Assembly (NCBI GenBank): GCA_963806535.1
Contig: CAWDYC010000007.1
Location: 1 to 64,000, forward strand
Direction of reading: 5' to 3'
Length of the DNA stretch: 64,000 bases
Source of the DNA: Candidatus Bathyarchaeota archaeon
Lineage (GTDB): Archaea; Thermoproteota; Bathyarchaeia; Bathyarchaeales; Bathycorpusculaceae
This document shows, one piece after another, positions 22,671 to 51,015 of this stretch (the first letter of the stretch is position 1; every line of letters starts with the position of its first letter). The position numbers and the translations under genes are program-made. The notes below the pieces were generated by a model. That model was not told the DNA's origin, searched no databases, and saw only the letters and a list, made by a program, of their open reading frames with translations.

Positions 22671-22671
22671 T

Positions 22672-24322: not shown

Positions 24323-25480
24323 ATGGTTCATACTAAGCTGTGCATTGTTACACACACTTTTCTACCCCATGTCGGCGGCATTGAAAAAGTCGTCAACGAA
24401 CAAAGCAAACGGCTGCTACAAAAAAACTTTGAACCCATGGTAGTCACGAATCGTATTGGAACACCTAAACATTATGTGGTTGACGGCGTAAATGTTGAGT
24501 GTTATGAATCTTTAAACACAGGTTTTCGTCTCGGTATTCCTTATTCGATTCCGACGGTGCCGAGTTTTAAAACATTTCTTAAGGCTGTAAAATCAAGTAA
24601 AATTGTTCACGCTCATGGTCACCCCTACCTGACTTCGCTCATTGCAGCTAAGATAGCCAAGAGATACGATAAGCCATTTGTTTTAACTCAGCATAACACA
24701 TTCATTGAATACGAAAATTTTTTTGACACTATTGAGCGGTTAAATGATTTAGCAGTTGGGAAACAGTCGATAAAAGATGCTGACAAAATAATCACTGTAA
24801 GCAACGCCACTAAGGATTATGTTTTAAGTTTAGGCGCAAAACCAAAAAAAATTAAAGTCATATATAACGGAGTTGATTTGGAACGTTTCAAACCTTTAGC
24901 GGGAAAACGGGAGGAAATGAGAAAAAAACTCGGAATCCCCAAAAACTCCAAAGTAGTCATAACTGTTAGGAGATTAGTTTTCAAAAACGGCATCGACACT
25001 CTGATAGAGTGCGCAAACATCGCTGTCAAAAAGAACCCAAACATTATTTTTCTAGTGGTTGGGAAAGGCCCAGATCAAGTTAGCATTCAGATGAGAGCGC
25101 AACAAATAGGCATAGAAAATAATTTTAAGCTTGCTGGATTCGTAAGAGATGAAGATTTACCATTCTACTATAACACCGCGGACTTCTTCGTCTTGCCCTC
25201 AAAATCCGGAGAAGGCTTGCCTTTGGTTGCCCTTGAAGCTATGGCTTGCGGATTACCGGTAATTGCGACAGATGTTGGTGGAATTAATGAAGTATTAATG
25301 GAGAAATGGGGAAGATTGGTTCCTGCTAACCAGCCCGAGAGACTTGCAAAGGCAGTTTTGGAGTTTGCAGATATGGATTTTTCTTCACGCCGAAAAGAGT
25401 TGAGGGCAATTATGGAAGAGAAGTTCAGCTGGGACAAAAATGTTGAAAGACTCGTTGAAATATACGAAGAGCTTATTTAA
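24323..25480 (+). CDS. Glycosyltransferase family 4
   Basis: PHVGGIE, IYNGVD, LPS.SGEGLPLVALEAMACGLPVIATDVGG. Confidence 0.92.
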   Translation: MVHTKLCIVTHTFLPHVGGIEKVVNEQSKRLLQKNFEPMVVTNRIGTPKHYVVDGVNVECYESLNTGFRLGIPYSIPTVPSFKTFLKAVKSSKIVHAHGHPYLTSLIAAKIAKRYDKPFVLTQHNTFIEYENFFDTIERLNDLAVGKQSIKDADKIITVSNATKDYVLSLGAKPKKIKVIYNGVDLERFKPLAGKREEMRKKLGIPKNSKVVITVRRLVFKNGIDTLIECANIAVKKNPNIIFLVVGKGPDQVSIQMRAQQIGIENNFKLAGFVRDEDLPFYYNTADFFVLPSKSGEGLPLVALEAMACGLPVIATDVGGINEVLMEKWGRLVPANQPERLAKAVLEFADMDFSSRRKELRAIMEEKFSWDKNVERLVEIYEELI

Positions 25481-25509
25481 CCAAACTATGGAATCATTAT
25501 AGCCTTTAT

Positions 25510-26262
25510 ATGGAGAAGCACGGGATGACATCTAAAGTTGATTTGGTTTCGGTTGTAATTCCAACATTAAATGAAGCAGGCAACATTCGTCAAATATTAA
25601 CTACAATTCACAACGATGTAACTTACCCTAAAGAAATAATTGTGGTGGATAGCAACTCAACTGATGGAACTATAGAAATAGTAAACGACACAAGTTTCTG
25701 CAGGCTAATAATTGAACCAAAACGTGGCTACGGTGTTGCCCTTAGAACAGGCATGAAAAATGCGAAAGGTAACATCATCGTTATGGTTGACGGCGATGGA
25801 ACATATGAGGTTCGACATATTAACCGTCTTGTGGAGAGGATGCTTGAAAAAGACGCTGATATGGTTTTAGGTACTCGCATGTACGATCCAAACAAAGCCA
25901 TGGGCTTCCTTAATTTCTTGGGAAACAAAGTGATAACCTTCACCTTTGACTTTTTCTATAGTCAATTCCTCAGCGACAGCCAATCCGGCTTTCGAGCAAT
26001 ATCCCATGAAGCCATCGACGAAGTCAAATTAGTAGAGCAAGACATGGCCTATGCAACTGAGATGCTAATCAAATTCGCTAGGGAAGGCTATAACATGGTA
26101 GAAATCCCTACAACTTACAAATCCCGAAAATACGGCAAAACAAAGCTTAAACCATTTAAGTCAGGGATTGAAATATTTAGCACTATATTCAGAGGAGTGC
26201 TGGATGCCAAAACAGTCAGGACATGTTATGGGCATTGGAAGAAAAATCGGCATAAACGATGA
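25510..26262 (+). CDS. Glycosyltransferase family 2 (DPM1/polyprenol-phosphate type)
   Basis: VVIPTLNE, VVD..STDGT, GYG.AL..G, DGDGTY, DSQSGFRA. Confidence 0.9.
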   Translation: MEKHGMTSKVDLVSVVIPTLNEAGNIRQILTTIHNDVTYPKEIIVVDSNSTDGTIEIVNDTSFCRLIIEPKRGYGVALRTGMKNAKGNIIVMVDGDGTYEVRHINRLVERMLEKDADMVLGTRMYDPNKAMGFLNFLGNKVITFTFDFFYSQFLSDSQSGFRAISHEAIDEVKLVEQDMAYATEMLIKFAREGYNMVEIPTTYKSRKYGKTKLKPFKSGIEIFSTIFRGVLDAKTVRTCYGHWKKNRHKR

Positions 26263-26728
26263 AAAAGGCTATGCAATCGCCATTTTTCTTGTTTTAATAA
26301 TTGTATCCGCACTCGTCGCAAGTTACTATTTGGTTTTTAATACGCAGCCAGCAGGATACAATACAATATATATACTTGACGCTCAAAAACAAGCGGTTGA
26401 TTACCCAATTACATTGGTTGCTAACCAGAACAGCACTTTTGATCTCTGGGTCGGAGTTGTTAATAATATGGGAGGAAGCGGAAACCAGACTTATCAGGTT
26501 CTTTTGAAAATTACACCGAATCTTTCCGATTTCCCAATTGACGTGCAGCCAACCCAAACATACCAGTTAAGCTTAAGAAACACCGATACTTGGCAAACTG
26601 AATCGACTATAACACTAAATGAGGTTGGAAACTACTGGGTTGTTTTTGAACTCTGGCACCAGAATTCTTCAGGAAATTATAATTTTACAAATGATAAAAC
26701 TGCCTTGAACGTTCAAGTAATAAGCTAA
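26228..26728 (+). CDS. DUF1616-like membrane-anchored Ig-fold protein
   Basis: Single TM, then YILD....A.DYP..L, VGVVN, VFELW; start uncertain. Confidence 0.6.
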   Translation: MGIGRKIGINDEKGYAIAIFLVLIIVSALVASYYLVFNTQPAGYNTIYILDAQKQAVDYPITLVANQNSTFDLWVGVVNNMGGSGNQTYQVLLKITPNLSDFPIDVQPTQTYQLSLRNTDTWQTESTITLNEVGNYWVVFELWHQNSSGNYNFTNDKTALNVQVIS

Positions 26729-28191
26729 GCCTTCTTCTGTCTTTCCGCGAATTCTTTTTCAATGGCCACTCTGTGAATGTTGTTATAAGCGCAGAATGGT
26801 ATGATTTTAAGGTCAGGTGTAATGTAGTGGACGACGCAGCGTCTTACTCGGTTTACGTCGAAGTTGTAGGAATCCATGAATGCCATGCAGCCTAAAAGAA
26901 AGATTCTTCTGCGGATTTTGCCCAGCGATTGGTAAGACGGTGATAGATGCATACGCATGATCGAGTTCATTAGGGTTAAAATGCCGACTTCTTTTGTTAC
27001 TAAGAACATGTCCATTGAAAGCATAGAAGCCATAAACAGGGATGAGAGCAAAGAGAGTTTACCTTTAGACTCTGCGGTCTCAGCAGTTTTGCGAATGCTA
27101 TTAAAGAATCTGTCAAAGTTGACGAAGCGGTTGATTGGGAACATTTTGCCATCTTTTGAAACATAAATCCAATTTACAATGCCGCATTGCGGGCTGCAGG
27201 AAAAAAGTGGCCAAGGTTTCTGCATGAATTTACGCATTATCTTGATTGGAGAAGTCATCACTGACATGGGGTACAAGTCCGTGCTCTTGATTTCGCCATG
27301 AGTTTGCTTCTCCACGTCTTCGGCAAAGTGAAATTCACGGAAGTTTTCCCTAAATCGGTTCGCCGTGGCCCGACCAGTAAAAGCGATAGGCTGGAAAATC
27401 AAGCCTCTAACAATATCAGTGTTTTTGGATGCGAACCGAATTATATCGCCAACCTCTTCATCGTTTAAACTCTTCATTAGAGTGTTAACCAGGATTACTT
27501 CCATGTCGTATTTGCGGCAAACGTCTAAGGCTTTTAGTTTGTAGTCAAAAAGCGCTTGTCCACGGACCTTCTTATAGAAGTCATCATGAAAACTGTCAAA
27601 CTGCAAGTAAACAATGTTTAGCCCGCTTTTCTTCATCCTCTCCGCTAACTGGGGGCTTTCAGCTAAACGCACACCATTAGTAGCAAGGATTGTCATGAAC
27701 TTGAGTTTATGTGCTGCCGCGATGATTTCAGGCATATCTTCACGTTCGGTCGGTTCTCCGCCTGAGAAGAGAATAGCTGGAGGCTTAGGGTTGGCTTGAC
27801 TTGCGAATTCAAGCATTCTTATTAGGTGTTCTTTGGTCGGTTCGTAATCGATTTCTTGCTCGGGAAACGTTGAGAAACACACGGCGCATTTTAGGTTGCA
27901 CCGTTTGGTTACATCGATAACTCCTATAACTGTGCCTGAAGCGTGTTTTGTGCATGTTTCACAGACGTAGGGGCAACCTTGCGGATCTTTTGGAGCATTC
28001 AAGTCGCCCAAGTACTGGAACTGGTCGTAGGTTTGCATGTGATTGTAAACATCTGTGCTCTGCCAATGTGTTGCTTCGAAGTTTCCGTGTTCGGGGCATT
28101 GCTTGGTGATCTGGATTTTGCCGTTTGCTTGTTTTAGTTGAGCATCGATTTTTTTCTGGCATTCAGGGCAGATGCTCTTAGTGTCGGTCAT
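26725..28191 (-). CDS. tes: Tetraether lipid synthase (Tes / GDGT-MAS, MJ0619-family) radical SAM enzyme
   Basis: N-terminal CPEC...CPEH, GCPYVCETCTKH, rSAM IDVT.RCNL.C.VCF, VYLQFD, SCSPQCG, FMDSYNFDVNRVRRCVVHY.TPD..IIPFCAYN. Confidence 0.8.
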   Translation of the reverse strand: MTDTKSICPECQKKIDAQLKQANGKIQITKQCPEHGNFEATHWQSTDVYNHMQTYDQFQYLGDLNAPKDPQGCPYVCETCTKHASGTVIGVIDVTKRCNLKCAVCFSTFPEQEIDYEPTKEHLIRMLEFASQANPKPPAILFSGGEPTEREDMPEIIAAAHKLKFMTILATNGVRLAESPQLAERMKKSGLNIVYLQFDSFHDDFYKKVRGQALFDYKLKALDVCRKYDMEVILVNTLMKSLNDEEVGDIIRFASKNTDIVRGLIFQPIAFTGRATANRFRENFREFHFAEDVEKQTHGEIKSTDLYPMSVMTSPIKIMRKFMQKPWPLFSCSPQCGIVNWIYVSKDGKMFPINRFVNFDRFFNSIRKTAETAESKGKLSLLSSLFMASMLSMDMFLVTKEVGILTLMNSIMRMHLSPSYQSLGKIRRRIFLLGCMAFMDSYNFDVNRVRRCVVHYITPDLKIIPFCAYNNIHRVAIEKEFAERQKKA

Positions 28192-29063
28192 ATTAGCCCT
28201 CCAAGTGTTGCCTCGATTATTAATGCTAACGGAAGAAGAATCATCGACATTGTTACTAAACGCTCATATTTCCGCACATTCTGCAATGTGGAAGTGGAAG
28301 TTGCGAGGCGAGCCGAAGAGTAAATTAGTAGAACACTCCATAACAGAATAAACGGCAAATAAGCAACTGTAAACTTGCCTATGAGGTAGGGAAGAGGCGC
28401 AAGCACTCCGGTTAGAGTGAAAAATACTGCCGCCATCTTTGCTGAATTTATGCTGCCGATTTTTTGTGGAAGCGTTGGATAACCAACTTTTGAATCTCCT
28501 TCTATGCTGAGGATATCCCGCAAAACATTACCACCGATTGTGCCGAAAGCGATTGGGTAAAGACTTAAAGAAATTAAGTTGATTGTGCCGGAGATTGTGG
28601 CTTGTCCATACATAAATGCTGTTCCAGTTAATATGCCGACTAAAATGTTAGCGGCAAAACCTGATTTACGTTTTACAAGCATTGAGTAAATCAGAAGTAA
28701 CGCTGAATCAGCAGCGATAATTGCGAAGCTCAACCAATTAATGAATGCAGCCATAATCAGACCCACTGCAAAAAGTATTCCTGAAATCGCCACTACTTGT
28801 TTTAATGAGAGAGCACCCGAAGGAATAGGGCGTTTTGGCTTGATTACAGAGTCGCTCTCTCTGTCGAAATAATCATTGATCGCAAAACCTGCAGAAGTAA
28901 TAAAAGCCATGGAAAAGAAAATGAGTAAAACTGTTTGTATACTGAGGCTAAGAGGATTTTTCGTTATGGCAAAAGCCGTTAGGAGTGATAAGCCGCCAGT
29001 CATCAGCCAGTAGGGAAGCCGCAGTAGAGCGATCAATCCTCTCGCTGGCGCGGCAGACATCAT
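28188..29063 (-). CDS. UbiA-family prenyltransferase, digeranylgeranylglyceryl-phosphate synthase-like
   Basis: AINDYFDRESD.VIKP.RPIPSG, second Asp motif RDILSIEGD...G..TLP; multiple TMs. Confidence 0.85.
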   Translation of the reverse strand: MMSAAPARGLIALLRLPYWLMTGGLSLLTAFAITKNPLSLSIQTVLLIFFSMAFITSAGFAINDYFDRESDSVIKPKRPIPSGALSLKQVVAISGILFAVGLIMAAFINWLSFAIIAADSALLLIYSMLVKRKSGFAANILVGILTGTAFMYGQATISGTINLISLSLYPIAFGTIGGNVLRDILSIEGDSKVGYPTLPQKIGSINSAKMAAVFFTLTGVLAPLPYLIGKFTVAYLPFILLWSVLLIYSSARLATSTSTLQNVRKYERLVTMSMILLPLALIIEATLGGLI

Positions 29064-29995
29064 ACTTTGATTTTCCTGTCGGCGATTACTTCTTTGATGC
29101 TGTCTTCAAGGCTTACCTTCGGGTTCCAATTTAACTCTGCTTTGGCTTTGGAGATGTCAAACCAAATTTTAGTGACGTCGCCCTGCCAAGACTGCCCCGT
29201 TGTGGTAACGAACGTTTTTTTCTCCAAACCGAGGATTTTAAGCATCATTTTGGCAAGGTCAATAATGGTTACTGTTTCGCCGTAACCTAAATTGTAAACT
29301 TTGCCATTGGCAGAATCGCTGGAGCCAACTTTTACCAAGGCATCCACGACGTCGGAAACATGAACGAAATCCCTTGACTGCATGCCTGTCCCGATGATTT
29401 CAAGTTTGCCCGGGTTCGCCGCCAGTTTATCTAGAAAGTCATGGATAACACCGTGGCATCTTAACCCGTAAACGTTAGCGAACCTTGTGATAACTATGTC
29501 TAAGCCATATTGGTCTTTGTACATTTCACAGTACTCTTCACCCACCACTTTTGACAGGCCGTAGCATGAGAATGGATGAAACCCGTAGCTTTCAGGAGTT
29601 GGAAAAACCGTAGGATTGCCGTAAACTGCGGCACTTGAGGCAAAAACGAGTTTGGCGTCGTTTTTGCGCGCTTTTTCTAGTACGCTCACGGTTCCCTTAG
29701 CGTTTGTGTCGAAATCTATCATAGGATTCTCCATAGAATAGGGAACCACGACTTGGGCGGCTAAGTGATAAATTAAATCAGCCTTCTCTTGAGAACAGAG
29801 CTTATTGGTGTCAAGTATATCGCCTTTGATAAGTTTGGCTTTAGGAACGTCTTTGACATTTTCCATTTTGCCGCTTGACAAGTTATCGTAAATCGATAAG
29901 TTAGAAGTTAGTTTTGACAGCTTACTGCAGAGGTGATAACCGATAAACCCTGCGCCGCCAGTAACAAGTATTTTTTTCCCCTCAAGTTCTCCCAT
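29060..29995 (-). CDS. NAD-dependent nucleotide-sugar epimerase/dehydratase (GalE-like)
   Basis: VTGGAGFIG, HLAA, ASSAAVYG, YGLSK, R.ANVYG, RDFVHV.D. Confidence 0.9.
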   Translation of the reverse strand: MGELEGKKILVTGGAGFIGYHLCSKLSKLTSNLSIYDNLSSGKMENVKDVPKAKLIKGDILDTNKLCSQEKADLIYHLAAQVVVPYSMENPMIDFDTNAKGTVSVLEKARKNDAKLVFASSAAVYGNPTVFPTPESYGFHPFSCYGLSKVVGEEYCEMYKDQYGLDIVITRFANVYGLRCHGVIHDFLDKLAANPGKLEIIGTGMQSRDFVHVSDVVDALVKVGSSDSANGKVYNLGYGETVTIIDLAKMMLKILGLEKKTFVTTTGQSWQGDVTKIWFDISKAKAELNWNPKVSLEDSIKEVIADRKIKV

Positions 29996-30042
29996 GCAAA
30001 TCACGATAAAGTCTATATTTCTTCAAGTTAGTTGTAGGGTAT

Positions 30043-30888
30043 ATGTCGCCAGTGAAACCTATAAAAACTTTTAGGGATTTGCTGTCTTTCCTAACCATTA
30101 TTCCAGTTGGCGGAAAAGAAGATTTTATTTTCACCACAGCCGAAAATGTGTATCTTTTTCCATTGATCGGCGGCTTTATTGGGCTTTTGGCGGCAGCTTA
30201 CTTCGTTGGTTCAGGCTTTATTGTAAGGTTTGTGCTTGGTTGGGTGAATTCGGTTGTGGTATTGCCGACTGATTTTTTATCTAAGCTTGCAGTTGCCGCC
30301 ATGACTGTTGCGTTCTTATTGGTTATTACTGGGCTTCAACATTTTGACGGTTTAATCGATTTAGGTAACGCCGTCGGCCTTGGGAACCTGCATGACCGAA
30401 AAATGGTTGCGCATGCTTGGACTGTAACTTACTCAGGAGCAATACTTGCGATTATTGTGGAGTTTGCGGCTTTTTTGGGGTTATTTTTCATCTTCAGCCC
30501 ATTGCTTGCTTTCGGCGCAATAATCGCCGCTGAAGTCTCAGCTAAATTGGCGATGGTAACCATTATTTGGGTTGGAAAACCTACGCATAAAGGGTTAGGC
30601 TCAATTTTTCTGGCAAAAGCAAAAAAGAAATTAAATCTTATTGCATATGGACTTTCGGTTTTCATTGTTTACCCATTTTTCGCTTACGCACTCAGTCCAC
30701 TTCTGGGTTTAATCGGCGTTGCCGTGATGCTGGTGAGTATTCCAGTAGCGCTTGTGATGGAGAAAATTTCAGAAAGAGTCTTTTGGGGAGTTTCAGGCGA
30801 CACAATTGGGGCAACAAACGAGGTAGCTAGGGCAGCTACGCTTATTTTGCTTGCAGCCGTGTTTGCAATTTTGGCGGTGTTGAAGTGA
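30043..30888 (+). CDS. Divergent CobS-family membrane phosphotransferase (second copy)
   Basis: SFLTIIP, FPLIG, TGLQHFDGLIDLGN, GVSGDTIGATNE. Several canonical CobS residues are altered. Confidence 0.8.
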   Translation: MSPVKPIKTFRDLLSFLTIIPVGGKEDFIFTTAENVYLFPLIGGFIGLLAAAYFVGSGFIVRFVLGWVNSVVVLPTDFLSKLAVAAMTVAFLLVITGLQHFDGLIDLGNAVGLGNLHDRKMVAHAWTVTYSGAILAIIVEFAAFLGLFFIFSPLLAFGAIIAAEVSAKLAMVTIIWVGKPTHKGLGSIFLAKAKKKLNLIAYGLSVFIVYPFFAYALSPLLGLIGVAVMLVSIPVALVMEKISERVFWGVSGDTIGATNEVARAATLILLAAVFAILAVLK

Positions 30889-31508
30889 AAGTTCCTGCTT
30901 TGATTATGGCTGGTGGAAAAGGCACTCGCATGGGTCTGCCTTCAGAGAAGCCGCTTTTGTGCCTCTTAGGGAAACCTCTAGTTGATTGGGTTGCGGAAGC
31001 AGTTAGCAGTGCTCAAAACATTTCAGAATTTTATATCGTAACAAGCCCGAATACTCCTGAAACTGAGAAGCACTGCCAAGCGAAGGGATGGAAGATTTTG
31101 CGCACAGATGCCAAAGGTTACCATAACGACCTCAAACAGGCTACACAAACAGCTGGCTTGATGAGTCCAGTATTAACTGTTCCGGCGGATTCCCCCGCAG
31201 TTACAAATAGATTTCTCGATAAAATTATTAGCCAGTTTGAATCATGTGGGAAAGATTTCTATGCAGTTTTTGTTCCTATCAAAACCCGTGAAGAATTGGG
31301 TCTTTCAGTGGATTCTACCGATGAATACAATGGCGAATGGTACGCGGTTTCAGGAGTCAACATAGTTAATGGCAACAAAATCCAAGGTGAAGGCAAAATA
31401 GAAACAAGCGCATTAATTACAGAAGAAATTGAAGTTCTCCTAAATATTAATACGCTCAGAGATTTGGAAATCGCAGAAAAAATAATGCAAGACAGAAATT
31501 CAAGTTAA
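30885..31508 (+). CDS. CobY-like nucleotidyltransferase (second copy)
   Basis: MAGGKGTRM...EKPL, ADSP, GVNIV, NINTLRDL. Confidence 0.8.
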   Translation: MKVPALIMAGGKGTRMGLPSEKPLLCLLGKPLVDWVAEAVSSAQNISEFYIVTSPNTPETEKHCQAKGWKILRTDAKGYHNDLKQATQTAGLMSPVLTVPADSPAVTNRFLDKIISQFESCGKDFYAVFVPIKTREELGLSVDSTDEYNGEWYAVSGVNIVNGNKIQGEGKIETSALITEEIEVLLNINTLRDLEIAEKIMQDRNSS

Positions 31509-33022: not shown

Positions 33023-33971
33023 CCCACAAACAGTTAAAATTTTCCGTGCAAAAGACGACATAAGCGAAATTGTCAAGGAAGCCGTCGCTAATTCAGGGCT
33101 AAGAGGTAAACATAGAATTTTCATTAAGCCAAACTTAAGTCACCCAGAATATCTGCCAGGTGTAGTTACTAGTCCTGAATTGATGAAGCAACTCGTGGGT
33201 TTGTTGCGTGACGGAAATAGCGAGGTCATTGTGGGCGAATCAAACGGCTTCAACTATCCTTGCTGGACAGCCTTCGATAAAACAGGAGCCGAAGCCGCAG
33301 TCAAAGCTGCTGGCGGCAGTGTCATTAACCTATCCGAAGACAAAGTCGTTGAAGTAAAATTCCAAGGCAACACTCCCTTGAAACGGCTGTTTCTTCCCAA
33401 AACCATCCTCGAAGCCGATGCTGTGGTCGATTTGCCGTTGATGAAAACGCATGAATTTATGGCTTATAGTGGTGCCATCAAAAACCTTTTTGGTTGCGTT
33501 CCCAGCAACAAACGAATTTATTTACATCCTTACTTGCCTGAAGTTTTCTATCGCTTATACACTCTTTTCAATCCACAATTAACCATTATGGATGCAAGAA
33601 CAGGCATCGAAGGTAATGGACCTACTAAAGGCAAACCAGTCAGAATGGGGTTAATGTTGACTGGCAATGATGCGTTAGCCGTAGACATAATCGCTGCCAA
33701 AGTCATGATGCTTAACTGGAAAGAAACCTATCTGAACTACATCGCTAACAAAACTGGCATGCACGAAGACGACATCGGAGTTGAAGGTGTACCGATTGTC
33801 AAAGTTGAGCACAGGTTTGAGCCTCCACGGATTGATTTGCCAGTGAAAGCACAAATGTTGATTTATCAACATGAATACCTGACGAAAGTTTTCTTCTGCT
33901 CGCTAGACTTAGTTAAGTTGTTCCAGAAGGTAACGGTAGCTTATCGGGGCAAACCTATAGAAATCGGCTAA
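33006..33971 (+). CDS. DUF362 domain protein
   Basis: FIKPNL, T.PE, GES, P.MKTH, GAIKNLFG, MDA..G.EGNGP..G. Confidence 0.85.
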   Translation: MPKVPNPQTVKIFRAKDDISEIVKEAVANSGLRGKHRIFIKPNLSHPEYLPGVVTSPELMKQLVGLLRDGNSEVIVGESNGFNYPCWTAFDKTGAEAAVKAAGGSVINLSEDKVVEVKFQGNTPLKRLFLPKTILEADAVVDLPLMKTHEFMAYSGAIKNLFGCVPSNKRIYLHPYLPEVFYRLYTLFNPQLTIMDARTGIEGNGPTKGKPVRMGLMLTGNDALAVDIIAAKVMMLNWKETYLNYIANKTGMHEDDIGVEGVPIVKVEHRFEPPRIDLPVKAQMLIYQHEYLTKVFFCSLDLVKLFQKVTVAYRGKPIEIG

Positions 33972-36153: not shown

Positions 36154-36157
36154 CTGT

Positions 36158-39451: not shown

Positions 39452-39487
39452 TATGTCCGTTTTGGAGTTTATATATTGTTTGAAAAC

Positions 39488-42631: not shown

Positions 42632-44035
42632 ATGACCACTCACATTACACTAGTAAATCCCCCATATCCTTTAGGGTCTCATTTGCACCCACCGTTCCTC
42701 CCATTGGGTCTTGGTTATTTAGCTGCAGTTTTAGAAAAAAACAACTACAAAGTCGACATAATCGATTGCCAAGCTCTCAAAATTGGTTATGATCAAGCTA
42801 AAGAGGAAATTAAAACTCGCCAGCCCGACATAGTTGGAGTTACCTCAACCACACTTACATACAAATCTGCACTAAAAATTGTGCAAATGGCAAAAGAAGT
42901 AAATCCTAACATTTTAACAATTATGGGTGGACCACACGTCACATTCTGGGATCAAGAAGCCTTAGGAGAATGCCCACAACTCGACGTCGTAGTAAGAAGA
43001 GAAGGCGAACAAACCGTACTAGAATTGGTACAAAAAGCCGAAGCAAAACAAAGCTTCAAAGACATATTAGGCATAACTTACCGCGACAACGGACAAACAG
43101 TGAGAACTGAAGATCGCCCTTGGCTAGAAAACCTCGATGAATTACCCTTCCCAGCCATTCATCTGTGGCCTATTGAAAAAATGAGAAGCTTCGGCGAAGT
43201 AATCTTTCCCCTAACCACGAGCAGAGGCTGCGTATTCTGGTGCAACTTCTGTACTGCCGTTCGTATGTTTGGCAGAAAATACCGCATGAGAAGCGTAAAG
43301 AACGTAGTAGATGAAATTGAATATCTGCACAAAACCTTTGGTGCTGAACACTTCACCTTCTACGATGACGCATTCACGGTAGATCAATCCCGAACCGAAG
43401 CACTATGCCAAGACATCCTTAACCGAGGGTTAAAAATACGGTGGAACTGCGAAACCCGCGTTGACATGGTTACCAAAGAGTTACTTGCTAAAATGAAAGC
43501 TGCAGGATGCACTGATGTCTGGTTTGGCGTTGAATCCGGTTCAAATAAAGTGTTAAACTCTATGGATAAGGGAATCTCCATTGAGCGAACACAACAAGCC
43601 TTCAGATGGGCACATGAAGTCAAACTAATGACAGTTGCAAACGTGATTCTTGGCTTCCCAACTGAAACCAAAGAAAGCATCTGGCAAACCGTTAAATTTA
43701 TCGAAAAACTAGACCCAAACGACGTTGGCTACTACATTGCAACACCTTACCCTGGAACACCCATGTACAACCAAGTGAAAGAAAGCGGTGCACTGCAAAT
43801 CTTCGACTTCGACAAATACGACACAGCAACACCAACCTTTAAACTCGATAACTTAACCATGGAAGAACTCAGAGAAACACGCGAAAAAGCATTCCACAGC
43901 TTCTACTTACGACCCCGCTACATGTTAAGCGTGATCTTCAAAGGCGGAGTCTACGGCCGAGCATCAACCATGCTGGTCTTAGCTCACCTTCGCAGAGCAA
44001 TAAGGTCCAAATTCTCTTTCAAAAAATCAGCTTAG
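42632..44035 (+). CDS. B12-binding radical SAM enzyme, close paralog of 41079-42464
   Basis: PLGLGYLAAVL, GGPHVT, SRGCVFWCNFC, GVESGS, TPYPGT. Confidence 0.9.
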   Translation: MTTHITLVNPPYPLGSHLHPPFLPLGLGYLAAVLEKNNYKVDIIDCQALKIGYDQAKEEIKTRQPDIVGVTSTTLTYKSALKIVQMAKEVNPNILTIMGGPHVTFWDQEALGECPQLDVVVRREGEQTVLELVQKAEAKQSFKDILGITYRDNGQTVRTEDRPWLENLDELPFPAIHLWPIEKMRSFGEVIFPLTTSRGCVFWCNFCTAVRMFGRKYRMRSVKNVVDEIEYLHKTFGAEHFTFYDDAFTVDQSRTEALCQDILNRGLKIRWNCETRVDMVTKELLAKMKAAGCTDVWFGVESGSNKVLNSMDKGISIERTQQAFRWAHEVKLMTVANVILGFPTETKESIWQTVKFIEKLDPNDVGYYIATPYPGTPMYNQVKESGALQIFDFDKYDTATPTFKLDNLTMEELRETREKAFHSFYLRPRYMLSVIFKGGVYGRASTMLVLAHLRRAIRSKFSFKKSA

Positions 44036-44140: not shown

Positions 44141-44975
44141 ATGAAAGTTGCCTCTATGTGGAGCGGAGGAAAAGACAGTTCACTTGCTACTTACGATGCT
44201 ATTATGCAAGGCCATGAAGTTTCAGACTTTGTAAGCTACAGTTACAAAGGAACCTCTCAACCAAATCCAAATATGCCCATCAGTCCACTAAGTCGAATCT
44301 TCAATATAGTTGGAAGAGCAAGCCCAAGTATAGTATCTAACCTTGCAAGCGTCATTTACCATAAAGACCTCAGCACCATGATTCCCCATGAGGTTGCACC
44401 AGAAATCATACAGAAACAAGCCCAAGCAATTGAAGTGCCTCTTGTTCAGGGTGAAGTAAGATGGGACACAATCGATCAATTCTTAAAAACCAGCATTCGC
44501 TCACTAAAGACGAAAGGAGTTGAAGGTTTAGTTTTTGGAGTGGTGCCGCCCACATTTTCCTCTGGACACTAGCGAGAAACTCAGAGAATACCAGACTCTC
44601 GTGGCACATAAGGAATGGATGAACCGCATCTGCAGTGAATTAAACGTAAAACCAATTACGCCACTTTGGGAAAGCAACCCTGATCAGATTCTAAGAGACC
44701 TCATCACCAAAGGGTTTGAATCAATTATCCTTGTGGTAGATTCGAAATATTTTGGTGAAGAATGGTTGGGCCGAAAAATAGACAAGGACTTTTTGGATGC
44801 TGTATACAAGCTTAAACGGGAAAAAAGCGTACACATCGGAGGCAGCGGATACCACACGCTGGTTTTAGACGGCCCGCTTTTCAAGAAACGATTAAAAATT
44901 CAGAAAAGCCGAAAAATTTGGAAACGCGGATACGGTGTCTTAGAAATCGATGAACTAGATCTCGTAGCAAAATAG
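44141..44975 (+). CDS. Divergent Dph6/DUF71-like PP-loop ATP pyrophosphatase; frameshift near 44550
   Basis: WSGGKDS, QAQAI..PL, PLW, WLGR, YHTLVLDGP.F; two insertions relative to 22672-23358. Confidence 0.75.
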
Positions 44976-45076
44976 TAAAACAGCAAGTTTAAACCATCTT
45001 AGTCTTTGGCTGGTTTTTTTGGAAACTATATAAACTGTAGCTACGTATAGTTTGGAAACTAAATGGGTGTCTCTAT

Positions 45077-46531
45077 ATGTCGATGGTGGAAAAGAAAAAT
45101 GTGAAGGTCGCATTAGTTAACCCACCTATCATTGAAGGTACGTTCCGCCATCAACTTTATCTGCCGATGGGTTTAGCCTATTTGGCAGCTGTTCTTCAAC
45201 AAAACGGCATCGAAGTTAAAGTCATCGATTGCCAAGCCATATACATAAATCATGAGCACCTAAAATCAGAGTTGAGCTCTTTTCAACCCGACATTGTGGG
45301 GATAACATCAATTGCCCCGTTGATGAGTTCAGCGTTGCTGTCAGCGAAGGCGGCAAAGGAAACCTTGCCTGGCGTCCAAGTGATAATGGGTGGGCCTCAC
45401 GCGACGTTTATGGATGAGCAAATCATCGCGCAGGAATCAGCGGTTGACCTCATCGTTAGAGGTGAAGGCGAACAGACGCTACTCGAAATTGCGCAAAACC
45501 TAGGCGAACACAGCAAACTCCACGACATTAAAGGAATCACTTACAAAGAAAACAACCAGGTTCTCCGAACACCCAACCGACCTTTCATTCAAGATTTGGA
45601 TGCTCTACCCAAACCAGCCTACAACCTCTTCGAGCTTGACAGGTATCGGCTGTTTGGAAAAAGACTCTTACCCGTAATCACAAGTCGAGGATGCCCCTTC
45701 CAATGCAATTTTTGCGTTGCAACACGCATGTTCGGCAAAGAATATCGTATGCGAAGTGCAGAAGGCGTGCTCGACGAGTTGGAATGGTTAAAGAATACTC
45801 ATGGAGCTGAAGCGTTCACGTTCTATGACGATACTTTAACGTTTAACAAAGAGAGACTTTTCAAAATCTGCGACGGAATGAAAAGCCGAGGAATCAATCT
45901 GCCATGGGATTGCCAAACAAGAGTTGACCAGGTGTCGCCTGAGGTTTTGGCAAAGATGCGGGCGGCAGGCTGCCAACAGGTGTTCTTCGGTGTTGAATCA
46001 GGCTGCCAAAAAGTCCTCAATGCTATAAGCAAAAAAACGCGTGTTGAACAAAACGAAAAAGCGATAAAGATGGCAAAAGAAGCGGGTCTTTTCGTTACAA
46101 TCTCATTAATAATTGGCTATCCAGGCGAAACACAAGATACATTAAAAGAAACATTGACTTTTGTTCAAAAAACAAAACCTGACGACGTTTATGTTTGTGT
46201 AGCTACGCCTTTTCCAGGGACAGAGCTGCGGAATGTTGTTGAGAAAAATGGGTGGCAAATATCTGCTAACTGGGATTGCTTTGATACGATGACGCCTGTT
46301 TTTGAAAATCCTGAGTTATCGCTTTCACCCAAAGAGATTAAGAGATTTAGAGAACAATTCTACGACAGCATTTATTCTCCACGCTATGTTATTCAGCATT
46401 TGCTTAGAAGGAATTCTTACAGTAGAATGATGGCGCGAACAGCTGCAAACCATATTTTGTGGAGAATCAAATCATCTCGGAAACAAGAAGAGGATGTTCC
46501 TTCAGAAAATAGTGCACAACAGACAACCTAA
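45077..46531 (+). CDS. B12-binding radical SAM enzyme
   Basis: PMGLAYLAAVL, GGPHAT, GEGE, SRGCPFQCNFC, GVESG, GYPGET, TPFPGT. Confidence 0.9.
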   Translation: MSMVEKKNVKVALVNPPIIEGTFRHQLYLPMGLAYLAAVLQQNGIEVKVIDCQAIYINHEHLKSELSSFQPDIVGITSIAPLMSSALLSAKAAKETLPGVQVIMGGPHATFMDEQIIAQESAVDLIVRGEGEQTLLEIAQNLGEHSKLHDIKGITYKENNQVLRTPNRPFIQDLDALPKPAYNLFELDRYRLFGKRLLPVITSRGCPFQCNFCVATRMFGKEYRMRSAEGVLDELEWLKNTHGAEAFTFYDDTLTFNKERLFKICDGMKSRGINLPWDCQTRVDQVSPEVLAKMRAAGCQQVFFGVESGCQKVLNAISKKTRVEQNEKAIKMAKEAGLFVTISLIIGYPGETQDTLKETLTFVQKTKPDDVYVCVATPFPGTELRNVVEKNGWQISANWDCFDTMTPVFENPELSLSPKEIKRFREQFYDSIYSPRYVIQHLLRRNSYSRMMARTAANHILWRIKSSRKQEEDVPSENSAQQTT

Positions 46532-46541
46532 TTCAAAAAAA

Positions 46542-47680
46542 TTATTTTGGATAATAACCTAGAACCTTCAGCAATGCCTTGGTAGAAGGGTGTTTTCCAT
46601 ACTTAACATGAATTAGCTGAAGAATCTCTTTTGCAGGAAATAGAAAATTAACGGTCTTGTTTAGTTCATGAAAGGGCTTGCCGCTGAATTGCGAGTAGTT
46701 GTGAATGTAAAAGAGAAGCGCTTGTTTGCGCGAATAGAAGTGAGGAATGTAATTTTCGATTTTGTACTTTCTGCAGACAGAATCGAACCGCACATATGTC
46801 GCGTATAAGTAAGACTCGTCCATATTGCCGCATGAAGGAGACATTGGTCTTCCCTCATACAGCTCATTATATTTTGAAAGCAACGGTGTACGTTGACTGA
46901 TTCAGGAAAGTTTTTGAAGCGGTCCGATCCCCTCATATCCAACATTCCGCTTAAAACAAATTTGGCACCGTTTTTCTTAGCTGCCTCAATAACCTGCGAC
47001 ATATTTTCCTCGGTGTCTGTTACAAATGGAATAAGCGGAATCATCCACAAACCGACCGTTATGCCCTTATCTGACAGCTTTTTTATCACTTCTAGTCTTC
47101 GTTTTGGAGAGGGCGCATTCGGTTCTAGAGTTTTTGCTAATTTTTCATCAAGCGTTGTTATCGTTACTGCGATGCAGCACCATGATTTTTTAGAAGCCTC
47201 TTCCAAAAGGTCTAGGTCACGTAGAATAAGATCGGACTTCGTGCCGATTGCAAAAGGCCAACCGTTCTCATTCAACACTTCCAAAATTCGGCGTGTAATT
47301 TGATATTTCTTTTCCGCTGGCTGGTATGGGTCCGTGCTTAAGCTTAATCTAACGACACCCTTCCGCTTAAACGTGGATAATTCTTTGGCTAATATTTGGG
47401 GTGCATTCGTCTTAGCATAAACAGGAACGGAAAAATCCTTGCATCCTTCATATTTTTGAGAACTAGTGTGGCAGTATAAGCAGTTAAATTCGCAGTTATT
47501 GTAGGGATCAAAACAGTAGCTTGTCCAAAACTGAGTTTTTAACATCTCAAATGTGCCCAAAACACTCTTGCAGTTTGTTTCTTGATATTTAGCCGGTTCT
47601 GGAGGCATTGAATCCCTTTTCAGTTTCATTTCATCCTGTAAGATATTATTAACTTTAGCTATTTTTGTCTGAATAATCAT
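46542..47680 (-). CDS. Radical SAM protein of the spore-photoproduct-lyase-like (Rv2578c-like) family; frameshift near 46895
   Basis: DPYNNCEFNCLYC, STDPYQPAE..Y.ITR, TKSDLILRD, LEP.APSP..RL. Confidence 0.8.
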
Positions 47681-47760
47681 CCCTCAAACTCGTTGAACAG
47701 TATAATGTCAGCAGAATACTCCTTTAACGGTGTGAATTGTTACAAACTTCTTAGCTGCAT

Positions 47761-49210
47761 TCATTTTCCCAACAAAAACTGAATTGTTCTTTTTGGGTTG
47801 CGAAGTGCCTTTGCAATCTTCGCGGGAGTTAGTGAGTAGTTTATGAGATTTGCTTTGGCGCATAATTCGCTAAGTTCGGTTGCTGTGAACTCTGGAGTTT
47901 CAATTAGAGGTTCAACTTCGGCTAGGGCTTCATCGCTGAATTTCTCCTTTAAATAGCCGCCTCTTACTGCTTGTTCGTAAAGTTCAGTCCCGTAAAGAGG
48001 CATGGCTATGCTGAAGTAAAATCTGTCAGCGCCAAGGCTTCTTAGTTTGTAAGCATACTTTATTGTTTCGTTTATGTCGTCTTTTGTTTCGCCTATAAGA
48101 CCAATAACAAAGAAACAACCAACTTTGATGCCCACTTTCTTAGATAAAATAACAGCTGTTTCAACATCTTTCAAATTCAAGTTCTTCTTGACAATCTTGA
48201 TCTAAAACTCGTTGAACACCAGATTCTGGAGCAATACGTATTTTTTTGCAGCCGGAAGCTTTCATTTTTCTTAAAAGATTTTCATCAAGAGTGTCTGCTC
48301 TAACGCCGTTGGGTGTAAACCATTCAATGTGTAATTTTCTTTTTACGATCAGATCGCAGATGGCTTCTCCTCTTTTTTTGTCTAGCATCATATTGTCATC
48401 GTAAAAATCAATCTGTTTAATTTTATACGTGTTAACCAAATATTCGATTTCATCAACCACATTCTGGGGACTTCTTCCTCGCCAAGTTTTTCCCATAACG
48501 TTATGAATTGAACAAAAAACGCAGCCATAAGGGACAGCCTCTGCTGGTTATCATCATTGCCCAGGGTTTGCTAATTTCACCTCGCAGGGGATTTTCTTTC
48601 ACAGCTTCAAAATATGTATTCATTGGAAGTAGATGTCTTGCAGGAAATGGCAGCGAATCTAAATTTTCGATTGGAGGTCTCGGAGGCGTAATAACTATTT
48701 TTTCTTTCTCGGCAAAGCCAATACCTTTTACGTTCTTGACTTTGTCTCTATTTTTCTCTAGTGCATCCACTAACTCGGACATAGTTTGTTCTGGTTCGCC
48801 AATAACAACAAAATCAATGTCGGGATTTGCAAGGCATTCAGTTAGGTCTTGTAGAGGGATGTAAACCATTCAGTACGACGGTGACGTCTTTGTTGATGTT
48901 TTTTATTGCGGAAACAACTTCAGCGGTAGATTTCCACCAACCAGAGAACGGAACTGAAATATCAACGACGCTTGGCGACCATTCTTTTACTCTATTTGCT
49001 ATTTCCTCGTTGGATAAACCCTGTCGATAATTCATTCCCTTTATTTCTTCAAGGTTTTTCCAGCCTTCAGCAGGCGCATCTATTATTCGGACGTCGATGT
49101 TCCTTTTCAAGAACAGCTGCTATATACGCTATATCTAAAGGTTGAAATACACTTGGTTTTCCCCATAATTTGGGATGAATACGCGGGGGATTAATTAAAC
49201 AAACGCGCAT
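47761..49210 (-). CDS. B12-binding radical SAM enzyme broken by several frameshifts (track ORFs 48838-49110, 48501-48869, 48161-48496, 47761-48180)
   Basis: MRVCLINPP..QPLDIAYIAAVL, GLHP, GEPE, SRGCP..C.FC, DDN, PNGVRAD, APESG, P..GTELY. Confidence 0.82.
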
Positions 49211-49410
49211 ATGAATTTACCACAGTTTTTAATGCGTAGTAAGGTATCTGATTTTTTGTTGTATTAGGATTGAAGATTCTGATTAACATTTGCTTTATGG
49301 AAGGTTTAGTTCTGGAGACATCGAAAATTGGAGAGTACTCGAAGATTCCCTTTTGTCAAAACTTCAGTTTTCCGAGAATATCCCGAAAAGCATCCATTGT
49401 CTATGATATA

Positions 49411-49846
49411 TTACAATTTTTGTTTATTTCTAAATCGCAATGCCTCAACAAGAAAAATAACTGCAGAAACAACTGTCACCACTGTTAAAAGCCAAAACGA
49501 TTCTTGAATGGGGTCGTTTAAAATCAAATGAGGAACCAAAATTGCAATCTCTGAGATCAAAACTCCCAATAAAAACAAAGCCGAATATTGCAAAGCTAGG
49601 CAAAAGGGTTTTTCCTACCCAGACATAGCCTTTCATGTTTACTTTTTCCTTAACAACGTAATTTCCATATTCGTCTTTAACAACCAAACCTAAATCCAAA
49701 AGTTTCTGAAGGTTTCGATAAGCAACGCTTGGGCTGCTAAGGTTGGCTCCGCGCATCAAATCTCTGGGTCCAACAGGCTTTCCCATCTTGACCATGTAGA
49801 CGTAAGTTTGAAATGTCGTTGCATTCAGTTCTTCGTCGGGTTGCAA
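49411..49846 (-). CDS. Winged-helix transcriptional regulator with C-terminal TM helices; frameshift near 49560
   Basis: Y.YM...KPVGPRDLMR..NLSSPSVAYR.LQKL..LGLV.KD..G.Y, followed by two hydrophobic segments. Confidence 0.7.
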
Positions 49847-50003
49847 GCTATAACCAACCTTTAACCAATTAACGATGCTCTTGCTTAAAAAACCAAGCCA
49901 TCAAAAGCCGCAAATGTTTTTTCACATTGAAAAGGAATAACTATTCTGTAACTTTGCAAACCGTAATTGATATAAACACTTTACCCGAAGTATCACGAAA
50001 GCA

Positions 50004-51015
50004 GTGCTTGGGTTAACTCTTGGAACTAAACATCTTAAACGTATCAATTGCCATTCTCATGGTGGCTTCTAGCAATCTTATTAGATTTGGTTCTTGGTGA
50101 CCCATCACCCAACTACCCTGACAGATGGTTTTTCAAGCTTCACCCAACTGTTTTAATGGGTAACTTTACCAGCAAAATTGAACCCTACTTCAAAAATCCC
50201 AACCCAAAAACAGAAAAATTCTTAGGCGTTCTTTTGGGATTAACGGTAATTGCCACATTTGCGATTCCAGTTTACTTTGGTTTATGGGCAATCTTCACTT
50301 ATGTCAGCATTTTTGTTTATGCACTTCATTGGCATTATCTTGCTTAAAATGACGATTTGCATTAAACTTGAAACCGACTGGGCAAAAGCTGCTGCCAAAG
50401 CCATAAAGACAAACGACTTAGATGAAGCAAAAAAATACAGTCATTTCTCAAGAAGAGACTCAAGAACCCTAAACGGTTCTCAAATCAGCAGTGCAGTTAT
50501 CGAGTCTATGGCTGAGAACCTAATTGACTTCAAACTGTCTCCTATGATGTCCTTTGCATTGTTTGGAGTTACTGGCGCCATTGCTTTTCGAGCCATAAAC
50601 ACGCTTGATGGCATGGTGGGTTTCAAAGATAAAAAGCACATCAATACAGGATGGTTTAGCGCAAATCTGGACACAGTTGTAAATTACATTCCCACAAGAC
50701 TCACGGCGTTTGCTGATGATTGTTGCTGCAGCAATCCTTCGCATGGACGCTAAGAACGCTTGGAAAATCGCTTACAGAGATCACAAGAAAGACGCCGAGC
50801 AGAAATCATGGTTGGCCAATGGCGGCTATGGCTGGCGCATTGCGGGTGCAGCTTGGAGAAGCCTGGGCAATACGTTCTTGGGTGACAGTTTGGAGCCTTT
50901 AACAGGGGACAAGATTTTGGGTGCTTTGCGAATTAGAGATGTTACAATTGTTTTGTGGGCGATTTTGTGTGTCGGCGTAATTGTGGCTGTGCGTTTGTTC
51001 TTTTTGCCTATTTAG
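50004..51015 (+). CDS. cbiB: Adenosylcobinamide-phosphate synthase (CbiB); several frameshifts
   Basis: LDLVLGDP....HP.V.MG, SRRD, ESMAEN, RAINTLDGMVG, GWFSA.LD...NYIP.RL, S.N.GWPMAAMAGAL.V.L. Confidence 0.85.

Follow-up and report, generated by a model that had tools for sequence, protein, structure and literature searches.

A conserved Bathyarchaeial gene cluster of tetraether-lipid and cobamide gene paralogues as a candidate second ether-lipid pathway

Here, we describe a block of genes at positions 24323-51015 of a 64,000-nucleotide stretch of DNA (the window; contig CAWDYC010000007.1, assembly GCA_963806535.1) from a Candidatus Bathyarchaeota archaeon. The block joins a Tes-family radical S-adenosylmethionine (rSAM) enzyme (Tes2), a prenyltransferase resembling digeranylgeranylglyceryl phosphate synthase (DGGGPS; UbiA2), a Gms-like rSAM-SPASM protein (Gms2), B12-binding rSAM enzymes (B12-rSAMs) and glycosyltransferases (GTs) to paralogues of the cobamide genes CobS, CobY, CobD and CbiB. 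As judged by sequence comparison, nearly all of its key genes are second copies existing beside canonical ones, a feature that the preliminary description of this DNA had not recorded. The region probably encodes a lineage-specific second ether-lipid or tetraether pathway, running beside the canonical one and equipped with its own cobamide-finishing module, a reading that we favour while holding it by no means assured.

Results

Gene content was derived from an open reading frame (ORF) listing together with profile and sequence searches of Pfam, NCBIfam and the Protein Data Bank (PDB). The families that the preliminary description had listed (UbiA, Tes rSAM, rSAM-SPASM, GTs, epimerase, DUF362 and Cob genes) were all recovered where it had placed them (Table 1). 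The source genome (G000; 2.95 Mb in 12 contigs, 91.75% complete, with the window on contig C7) carries canonical Tes, DGGGPS, CobS, CobY, CobD and CbiB elsewhere, 29-48% identical to the cluster copies. What is reported below on families, paralogues, gene order, co-occurrence and phyletic range was observed directly.

Tes2 exceeds the equivalog cut-off of NF045702 (472.4 bits against 450, residues 4-483), with the same outcome when the whole genome was searched, so that it qualifies as a member of this family. It aligns over its full length to the solved tetraether synthase GDGT-MAS (PDB 7TOL, E 8.8e-114; GDGT, glycerol dialkyl glycerol tetraether), keeping the CX3CX2C radical SAM motif and, as in that structure, an N-terminal zinc ribbon (Pfam Zn_ribbon_HMPTM). 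The canonical Tes of the source genome (G000:C3:413851) scores 665.5 bits and is 39-41% identical to Tes2; it and the canonical UbiA, which is of DGGGPS type (C4:536733, 31% identical to UbiA2), sit in unrelated neighbourhoods. Among 1.84 billion cluster representatives, the best full-length match to Tes2 was the type found in a second Bathyarchaeia family (46% identity, 487 bits), and the next best reached 37% identity and 334 bits. We built a tree by a quick method from 51 full-length proteins of 440-620 amino acids (aa) among the first ~60 hits, its rows leaving out fragments and longer fusions. In this tree, the window Tes2, the Tes2 of the second-family genome G052 and the best representative form a clade (Shimodaira-Hasegawa-like approximate likelihood-ratio support 99) whose sister group is unresolved and which lies apart from the canonical Tes of the source genome. 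The likeness to Tes proposed in the preliminary description is thus borne out, with the addition that the protein falls in a clade of its own. A search of the ESM Atlas with Tes2 returned generic Tes-family clusters only. On these comparisons, Tes2 is a separate and isolated Tes subfamily. A recent duplication of the host's own Tes can be rejected, as the canonical copy and Tes2 fall into different groups of the 51-protein tree.

The best curated matches of UbiA2 are DGGGPS models, both below their cut-offs (PRK12882, 166.7 against 296; PRK12884, 174 against 269). Its best PDB match is likewise a DGGGPS (6M31, E 1.1e-31), to whose NDIFDIEID segment the NDYFDRESD segment of UbiA2 was aligned, keeping the Asp-rich NDxxDxxxD motif. 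By these scores, UbiA2 is DGGGPS-like rather than a certified DGGGPS member. We rejected a reading of UbiA2 and the neighbouring epimerase as decaprenylphosphoryl-5-phosphoribose (DPPR) synthase and partner, the corresponding model giving 45 bits against 167-174 for the DGGGPS-type models.

Gms2 has an AhbD-like rSAM-SPASM core (TIGR04545, 308 bits over residues 118-466, below the cut-off of 500). Its N-terminal extension of ~117 aa aligns with that of a wider group of Bathyarchaeial Gms-type proteins and has only weak Pfam matches, to zinc ribbons. Since the accessible text of Garcia et al. (2024; PMC11214058) describes Gms as an AhbD-like core with a ~100-aa N-terminal extension (COG4001 domain), we read Gms2 as having Gms architecture. 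The wider Gms-type protein is 41-48% identical to Gms2, aligns with it from about residue 13 and occurs in many relatives that lack the cluster, and both types are present in 5 of 12 cluster-bearing genomes. No copy of the wider type (Gms1) was detected in the source genome, where the next-best rSAM-SPASM protein is at most 36% identical and without the extension. By alignment, then, Gms2 is a paralogue of the wider Bathyarchaeial Gms type. The Gms2 N-terminus (31595-31957) carries a four-cysteine CxxC...CxxC motif, found also in the G052 Gms2 and absent from two of three aligned wider Gms-type proteins. For Bathyarchaeota, the same account lists 188 Gms and 307 Gmm homologues, many of the latter multi-copy 'Gmm2', and reports Bathyarchaeota-like Gms from peat metagenomes (PMC11214058).

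Of the five B12-rSAMs counted in the preliminary description, four are intact, each with the B12-binding and radical SAM domains (Pfam PF02310 and PF04055), and the fifth is broken across frames in this assembly. A tree of 31 sequences resolved four orthogroups, each with members of both families: A (an 8-row clade including G052; support 97/98), B/C (11 rows; 100/100), D (with G029 and G052; 100/100) and E (with a G052 member; 100/100). Because each orthogroup spans both families, the paralogues are older than the family split, and they presumably have distinct roles. Together, B/C and D form the clade nearest to B12-rSAMs that adjoin the wider Gms type in genomes G054 and G336, at a fork that is unresolved and was drawn open (93/87). 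A B12-rSAM beside Gms is the gms-gmm arrangement described in PMC11214058.

The cluster is conserved. A Tes2 orthologue (at least 73% identity, five of them partial) was found in 34 of 36 genomes of the genus, the two without it being 58% and 65% complete. In all ten regions compared gene by gene, Tes2, UbiA2 and the epimerase gene are adjacent, and CobS2 adjoins them in nine of nine genus regions. We also examined, at an identity of at least 50%, 50 named loci of Bathycorpusculum whose 10-kb flanks were complete, genes beyond ~9 kb falling outside such a flank. UbiA2, the epimerase and CobS2 formed a contiguous core with Tes2 at 50/50 loci, and CobY2 was found at 46, Gms2 at 42, GT4b at 41, and DUF362, GT4a and GT2a at 39 each. 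Nearly all Tes2 loci retrieved are labelled Candidatus Bathyarchaeota or Bathyarchaeia, several of them Candidatus Bathycorpusculum from termite guts, peat and soils. Contigs and proteins 77-94% identical to the window Tes2 or CobS2 also carry the labels Acidoferrum, Methanocella, Limnocylindrales and Verrucomicrobiae (L060, L121, L137, P0070); these are probably mis-binned Bathyarchaeia contigs in public metagenome-assembled genomes.

G052 and G060, two genomes of a single genus from a different family within the order, hold the same set in one block, 30-63% identical to the window. This block comprises GT4a, DUF1616, the epimerase, UbiA2, Tes2, CobS2, CobY2, CobD2, a 191-aa protein, GT2c, GT2b, GT4b, Gms2, the methyltransferase and several B12-rSAMs, with an intact CbiB2 in G052. 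In both genomes, a canonical CobS (140-151 bits, the cluster copy scoring 82-84) and a canonical CbiB exist apart from the block. The G052 block is bounded by GatB and amidase genes on one side and takes in extra redox genes on the other. Extras of the G052 cluster (L139, L053) are an aldo-keto reductase-ferredoxin fusion, an RnfD-like protein-ferredoxin fusion, an amidohydrolase, a second short rSAM-SPASM protein and a second class I methyltransferase, alongside six B12-rSAMs; a pyridine-nucleotide disulphide oxidoreductase gene lies between its CobS2 and Tes2.

At a search threshold of E ≤1e-40, which excludes canonical DGGGPS, UbiA2 was found in 80 of 401 Bathyarchaeia genomes and in two families only: 67 of 103 genomes of the window's own family (about a dozen genera) and 12 of 18 of the second (one genus), against 0 of 279 from all other Bathyarchaeia families. 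In a panel of 32 genomes from the window's family, 12 UbiA2-positive and 20 negative, Tes2 (56-69% identical) and CobS2 (47-63%) were present within a few kilobases in 12/12 positives. Among the negatives, Tes2 was absent from all 20 and CobS2 occurred in one, right where a contig begins. Cluster-type Gms2 (at least 57% identity) was present in 12/12 positives and 0/19 negatives, and a B12-rSAM B/C orthologue (at least 52%) in 11/12 and 1/19, respectively. Since the arrangement is conserved across species and in two families, its clustering is not due to chance, and the co-location of Tes, UbiA, Gms-like and B12-rSAM genes that the preliminary description had proposed extends across the genus and into a second family.

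The cobamide-type paralogues range from a borderline pass to scores below threshold. CobS2, with seven hydrophobic segments, reaches the equivalog cut-off of TIGR00317 (110.3 bits against 110; the canonical copy scores 156.5), and near relatives with at least 74% identity were among the matches listed for it. CobY2 lies below its cut-offs (TIGR00454, 129.6 against 174.7; NF045495, 98.6 against 250), with CobY structures 2MZB and 3RSB as best PDB matches and the N-terminal GGKGTRMG motif kept. CobD2 is below cut-off and not clearly above HisC (TIGR01140, 265.6 against 290.6; HisC, 249.5 against 276.6), and matches CobD 1LC5 in the PDB (E 2.4e-45). CobS2 and CobY2 are 34-37% identical to the canonical CobS and CobY upstream. 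The claim that divergent cobamide paralogues lie in the cluster holds for CobS, CobY, CobD and CbiB, which occur only where the lipid genes occur; of the two parts of it that need amending, the Dph6-like copy is split and not conserved in relatives, and CbiB, though its family is present along with CobD, is frame-broken in this assembly. Overlaps of 4 and 17 nt and a gap of 87 bp separate CobS2, CobY2, Gms2 and DUF362, which from this spacing probably form one operon. A second CobT or CobZ is absent from the cluster.

A canonical CobD-CbiB pair lies at C4:514-516 kb (G000:C4:514195-516143), and a second, canonical CobD stands beside a canonical CbiB in relatives as well. In the source genome, this canonical CobD is dead, with seven in-frame stops, and the adjacent CbiB is intact; in the cluster the reverse holds, CobD2 being intact and CbiB2 broken, so that the losses complement one another. 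This suggests that the two copies of each may be interchangeable, and we take it to argue that the paralogues serve cobamide assembly. In the 32-genome panel, canonical-type CobS is kept in 12/12 cluster-bearing genomes against 2/20 without the cluster.

Two genes of the conserved set are broken in the window. Searching with intact orthologues from G030 and G029 (483-491 aa) by tblastn gave aligned segments for B12-rSAM E in frames -1, -2 and -3. For CbiB2, segments against intact 358-361-aa orthologues fell in frames 2, 3 and 1; the match to the family (PF03186) is clear, yet the window copy is not intact. CbiB2 is intact inside the cluster of G003, G014, G052 and G060. Each of 11 listed sequencing runs, no RNA run among them, held at most 0.07 of the window's sampled words. 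Between the two broken genes lies a 133-aa ORF without a family (49445-49846, minus strand), of which at least four more copies, 54-61% identical, occur elsewhere in the genome and which may be a small repeated or mobile gene. Two other genes of the block are not conserved: the Dph6-like gene had no orthologue above 50% identity among six relatives compared, and the PA0069/Rv2578c-family rSAM gene had no match in any of ten related regions.

Table 1. Genes of the 24323-51015 block and of the flanking canonical cob module, with the matches on which each assignment is based
Feature	Position	Strand	Basis
GT4 glycosyltransferase a	24323..25480	+	Pfam Glycos_transf_1 + Glyco_transf_4; G052-cluster orthologue 48% identical
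GT2 a, polyprenyl-phosphate hexose synthase (AglJ-like) type	25510..26262	+	Pfam GT2; TIGR04182 164 bits, below cut-off 325
DUF1616 membrane-anchored protein	26168..26728	+	Pfam DUF1616; 1 hydrophobic segment; G052 and G060 orthologues 30-34% identical
Tes2, Tes-family radical SAM enzyme	26725..28191	-	NF045702; Zn_ribbon_HMPTM; Radical_SAM
UbiA2, DGGGP-synthase-like prenyltransferase paralogue	28188..29063	-	PRK12884/PRK12882, PDB 6M31; 4-nt overlap with Tes2
NAD-dependent epimerase/dehydratase, GalE-like (short-chain dehydrogenase/reductase, SDR)	29060..30004	-	Pfam Epimerase + GDP_Man_Dehyd; 4-nt overlap with UbiA2
CobS2, divergent CobS paralogue	30043..30888	+	Pfam CobS 89 bits; divergent from epimerase, 38 bp apart
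CobY2, divergent CobY-type nucleotidyltransferase	30885..31508	+	TIGR00454; 4-nt overlap with CobS2
Gms2, AhbD-like rSAM-SPASM + ~117-aa N-terminal extension (Gms architecture)	31595..33022	+	Pfam Radical_SAM + SPASM
DUF362 protein	33006..33971	+	Pfam DUF362, 168 bits
GT4 glycosyltransferase b	33968..35269	-	Pfam; G052 orthologue 42% identical
GT2 b, MftF/PgaC-like, one long hydrophobic stretch	35164..36252	-	Pfam, NCBIfam, hydropathy
GT2 c, AglJ-like	36158..36874	-	Pfam; TIGR04182 163 bits, below cut-off
Conserved 191-aa membrane protein	36921..37496	+	3 hydrophobic segments; no Pfam family
CobD2, threonine-phosphate-decarboxylase-like pyridoxal-phosphate enzyme	37555..38598	+	TIGR01140; PDB 1LC5
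Class I SAM methyltransferase	38603..39451	-	Pfam Methyltransf_11 + Methyltransf_25; G052 orthologue 50% identical
B12-binding radical SAM, orthogroup A	39488..40846	-	Pfam B12-binding + Radical_SAM
B12-binding radical SAM, orthogroup B/C	41079..42464	+	Pfam, NCBIfam, tree
B12-binding radical SAM, orthogroup B/C	42632..44035	+	64% identical to 41079..42464 gene
Second DUF71/Dph6-like copy, split by one frame change	44141..44975	+	Pfam Diphthami_syn_2 on two ORFs
B12-binding radical SAM, orthogroup D	45077..46531	+	Pfam, tree
PA0069/Rv2578c-family radical SAM protein, 339 aa, unrelated insert	46661..47680	-	NF033668 184 bits, below cut-off
B12-binding radical SAM, orthogroup E, broken in this assembly	47764..49210	-	tblastn, several frames
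CbiB2, broken by at least 2 frame changes in this assembly	50096..51012	+	Pfam CobD_Cbib fragment, 138 bits
Canonical CobY (adenosylcobinamide-phosphate guanylyltransferase type); outside cluster, flanking	20207..20974	-	Pfam NTP_transf_3; 35-37% identical to CobY2
Canonical CobS	20806..21561	-	Pfam CobS 138 bits; TIGR00317 156.5 bits (genome search)
CobT-like, weak DBI_PRT match	21569..22477	-	Pfam PF02277, E 5.9e-06
Full-length DUF71/Dph6-like protein of cob module	22672..23358	-	Pfam Diphthami_syn_2, 175 bits
CobZ-like alpha-ribazole phosphatase, marks canonical cob module end	23518..24180	+	TIGR03161 119.5 bits, below cut-off 152.5

Among the remaining genes of the block, the epimerase scores 176 bits against TIGR01179, below the cut-off of 262. 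DUF362 has counterparts in the genus and no match in the G052 cluster, and orthologues of the 191-aa protein, 30-33% identical, occupy the same position in G052 and G060. Directly upstream lies the canonical cob module (20207-24180: CobY, CobS, CobT-like, DUF71 and CobZ-like genes), as the preliminary description had claimed. Orthologues of its CobT-like protein, 78-89% identical, adjoin CobS in six of nine genus genomes. Outside the genus this adjacency is not kept, the canonical CobS of G052 lying ~47 kb from the cluster. In four genomes (G000, G014, G003 and G052), cobyric acid synthase (CobQ/CbiP, TIGR00313, E ≤1e-20) was found in none and CbiC in three; corrinoid salvage or completion may follow an unusual route in these archaea, and the cob-adjacent DUF71 proteins are possibly relevant to it.

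Further upstream, two divergent Acyl_transf_3 membrane acyltransferases (10580-12961) precede an energy-coupling-factor-type CbiO/CbiO/CbiQ transporter (16193-18647). On the right flank (52757-62992), a pyrroloquinoline-quinone-repeat beta-propeller array begins at ~52.7 kb among unrelated genes, with another rSAM-SPASM gene (55440-56468) and a double AsnC/NirDL-like helix-turn-helix gene (61979-62992), both resembling genes of the alternative haem pathway. A scan of the whole window against Rfam at gathering thresholds gave no matches, neither a riboswitch nor another known RNA.

Discussion

From the families present we infer the substrates, the order of steps and the product of the pathway as follows. 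UbiA2 would add an isoprenoid chain to an acceptor of the glycerol-phosphate type, Tes2 would couple a pair of chains tail to tail, giving a membrane-spanning tetraether, and Gms2 would cross-link two biphytanyl chains. B12-rSAM orthogroups A-E and the class I methyltransferase could then tailor the hydrocarbon or the backbone, presumably by C-methylation or possibly desaturation, by analogy with Gmm and Ted. The GalE-like enzyme, the two GT4, one processive-type GT2 and two GT2 resembling polyprenyl-phosphate-hexose synthases may assemble a head group of glycosidic type or a glycan anchored on the tetraether. Finally, CbiB2, CobD2, CobY2 and CobS2 are most likely a second nucleotide-loop set, predicted to finish or remodel the corrinoid cofactor for the four to six B12-rSAMs. 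The preliminary description had proposed a dedicated cluster for a modified tetraether; the comparisons support this as far as a conserved, lineage-specific second pathway of tetraether type with cobamide paralogues, its modified product being putative.

Several points weigh against this reading. UbiA2, Gms2, CobY2, CobD2 and all of the B12-rSAMs score below every curated NCBIfam cut-off, so the range of candidate substrates stays wide. The B12-rSAMs score highest against BchE, HpnJ and ApyD, an enzyme of ribosomally synthesised and post-translationally modified peptides (RiPPs), with 219-270 bits, all below cut-off, and B12-rSAM content varies between species. A pathway directed at proteins or glycans would accommodate the AglJ-like GT2s and DUF1616 just as well. 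The genomes of the family panel are kin, so that their co-occurrence counts describe a shared block and overstate the support, and the frame breaks may be assembly errors. Moreover, the activity of the B12-rSAMs is not to be read from homology, as a Bathyarchaeal Gmm homologue is, according to the accessible text of a recent preprint, the tetraether desaturase Ted, and homologous lipid B12-rSAMs can methylate, cyclise or desaturate (bioRxiv 10.1101/2025.10.20.683597).

An alternative that we regard as unlikely, though deserving of attention, is that the cluster makes butanetriol or pentanetriol dialkyl glycerol tetraethers (BDGTs, PDGTs), with one B12-rSAM orthogroup methylating the glycerol backbone and UbiA2, Tes2 and Gms2 adapted to a methylated backbone. 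The confinement of UbiA2 to two families (67/103 and 12/18, against 0/279 elsewhere) speaks for it, since this restricted range overlaps the lineage reported to produce BDGTs. Proteins 80-82% identical to the second family's Tes2 are labelled 'Candidatus Bathyarchaeum sp.' and 'MCG-1 archaeon SG8-32-1'; in the accessible literature, strain M17CTs (Bathyarchaeum tardum) is placed in Baizosediminiarchaeum, the former subgroup-8, of which BDGTs are given as a verified biomarker (PMC12694404, PMC10477458). The additional methyl group derives from methionine by a proposed radical mechanism, as far as the available account goes (PMC11767167, citing Coffinet 2022), and in the cluster only steps after geranylgeranylglyceryl phosphate (GGGP) are duplicated, as expected if the backbone diverged after GGGP. 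However, the same account has the methyl put onto ready-made GDGTs, in which case no dedicated UbiA2 and Tes2 would be needed. Outside these lineages, the search of 1.84 billion representatives gave no close relative of Tes2 (best other match 37%, 334 bits), so that Methanomassiliicoccus, a BDGT producer outside Bathyarchaeia, cannot share it, and the accessible literature does not report BDGTs from the lineage of the window itself. The link of the cluster to BDGTs is circumstantial, resting on phyletic coincidence. A more elaborate version, which we consider rather doubtful, would have CobY2 and CobS2 either supply a dedicated cobamide or attach a head group to the hindered butanetriol hydroxyl. 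Its further element, descent of both enzymes from ones acting on aminopropanol phosphate, in which the phosphate sits on a secondary carbon that bears a methyl group, strikes us as just as doubtful.

The cobamide-type paralogues could also have left corrinoid chemistry altogether. In such a scheme, CobD2 would provide an aminopropanol-phosphate-type unit, CobY2 would activate it as a nucleoside diphosphate derivative and CobS2 would transfer it to an alcohol, giving a phosphodiester head group or linker on the lipid; it would parallel a cytidine-diphosphate-alcohol route or the CofC/CofD pair of coenzyme F420 synthesis. The scheme would suit the placement of CobS2 and CobY2: they are interleaved with the lipid genes rather than the B12-rSAMs, only 38 bp divide them from the operon of Tes2, UbiA2 and the epimerase, and their occurrence is strictly linked to that of Tes2 and UbiA2. 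It would likewise suit their divergence (34-37% identity to the canonical copies, with CobY2 and CobD2 below cut-off) and the lack of a second CobT or CobZ. Nevertheless, four consecutive enzymes of one pathway (CbiB, CobD, CobY and CobS) are duplicated together, for which the same corrinoid chemistry is the simplest explanation. The complementary losses of CobD and CbiB suggest interchangeable copies, CobS2 reaches the CobS equivalog cut-off, and canonical-type CobS is retained with the cluster (12/12 against 2/20). We therefore consider such a departure improbable, and a dedicated cobamide-finishing set for the B12-rSAMs is favoured over it.

It seems similarly improbable that the region is a mere neighbourhood, in which a cobamide salvage and remodelling island, a surface-glycan cluster akin to N-glycosylation and a few lipid genes adjoin without forming one pathway; in a variant, the B12-rSAM, SPASM and methyltransferase part would mature a peptide or tailor the cobamide lower ligand in a bza-like manner. 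AglJ-like GT2s, GT4s, an epimerase and DUF1616 are indeed typical of glycan assembly, the canonical cob module lies directly against the cluster in genomes of the genus, and the B12-rSAMs, which differ in number and position between species, give sizeable though sub-threshold scores with ApyD (157-240 bits), a RiPP C-methyltransferase (131-149) and BzaD (128-146). Against this, two families retain the combination at 30-63% identity without retaining its adjacency to the cob module (CobS being ~47 kb off in G052), all components share one pattern of presence and absence, and B/C and D stand nearest in the tree, albeit at an unresolved fork, to B12-rSAMs that adjoin Gms. No ThiC-like BzaF was present among the Pfam-scanned ORFs, and precursor peptides were not looked for. 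A Bza-type lower-ligand pathway is itself judged unlikely, the BzaD scores falling far short of the cut-off of 450 and below those for BchE and HpnJ.

The second ether-lipid or tetraether pathway that we favour matters because tetraethers of archaeal origin rank as major biomarkers and Bathyarchaeia belong to the most abundant archaea of sediments and soils, with a lipid genetics that has barely been explored. The locus offers a compact and conserved set of candidates, including four to five B12-rSAM orthogroups each kept across two families, and an instance in which duplicates of late cobamide assembly genes have come to lie within a lipid cluster. With its range confined to two lineages, one of which apparently includes reported BDGT producers, the cluster makes the origin of BDGTs, of methylated glycerol monoalkyl glycerol tetraethers (GMGTs) or of a tetraether-anchored glycan directly testable.

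How does the cluster compare with known systems? The association of Gms with multi-copy B12-rSAMs in Bathyarchaeota is already published (PMC11214058). In the literature accessible to our searches, we found no description of this Tes subfamily or of the DGGGPS paralogue, nor of an archaeal cluster that combines the two with paralogues of late cobamide genes. In Garcia et al. (2024), the archaeal gms-gmm(-grs) clusters place a gene for a Gms-architecture rSAM beside B12-rSAM genes, as here, and the bacterial tes/mss-gms clusters of Acidobacteria and Planctomycetes pair a tes-family gene with gms (PMC11214058). Unlike the latter, the cluster in the window is archaeal; it also adds a DGGGPS paralogue, five glycosyltransferases and a complete second CbiB/CobD/CobY/CobS set, and the Gms that it encodes shares 41-48% identity with its paralogues of the wider Bathyarchaeial type.

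With respect to single enzymes, Tes2 resembles Tes/GDGT-MAS (M. jannaschii Mj0619, PDB 7TOL) as a full-length homologue that shares the zinc ribbon and CX3CX2C motif and passes the family cut-off. It differs as a second copy in a separate clade, limited to two Bathyarchaeia families, and its gene shares an operon in every case with an SDR gene and one for a UbiA paralogue. The B12-rSAMs of the cluster share their B12-binding and radical SAM architecture, and a genomic tie to lipid genes, with GrsA/B, Gmm, the GDGT methylases and Ted; unlike Ted, whose partner in the accessible text of the preprint is an AttH-like hydratase, they have no such partner that we could see among the annotated genes of the cluster (10.1101/2025.10.20.683597). 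Finally, all four families of the archaeal CbiB/CobD/CobY/CobS assembly are recognised in the cluster, CobS2 being a polytopic membrane protein. Compared with the canonical nucleotide-loop genes, however, the cluster copies are divergent, occur only together with the lipid genes and are placed among them.

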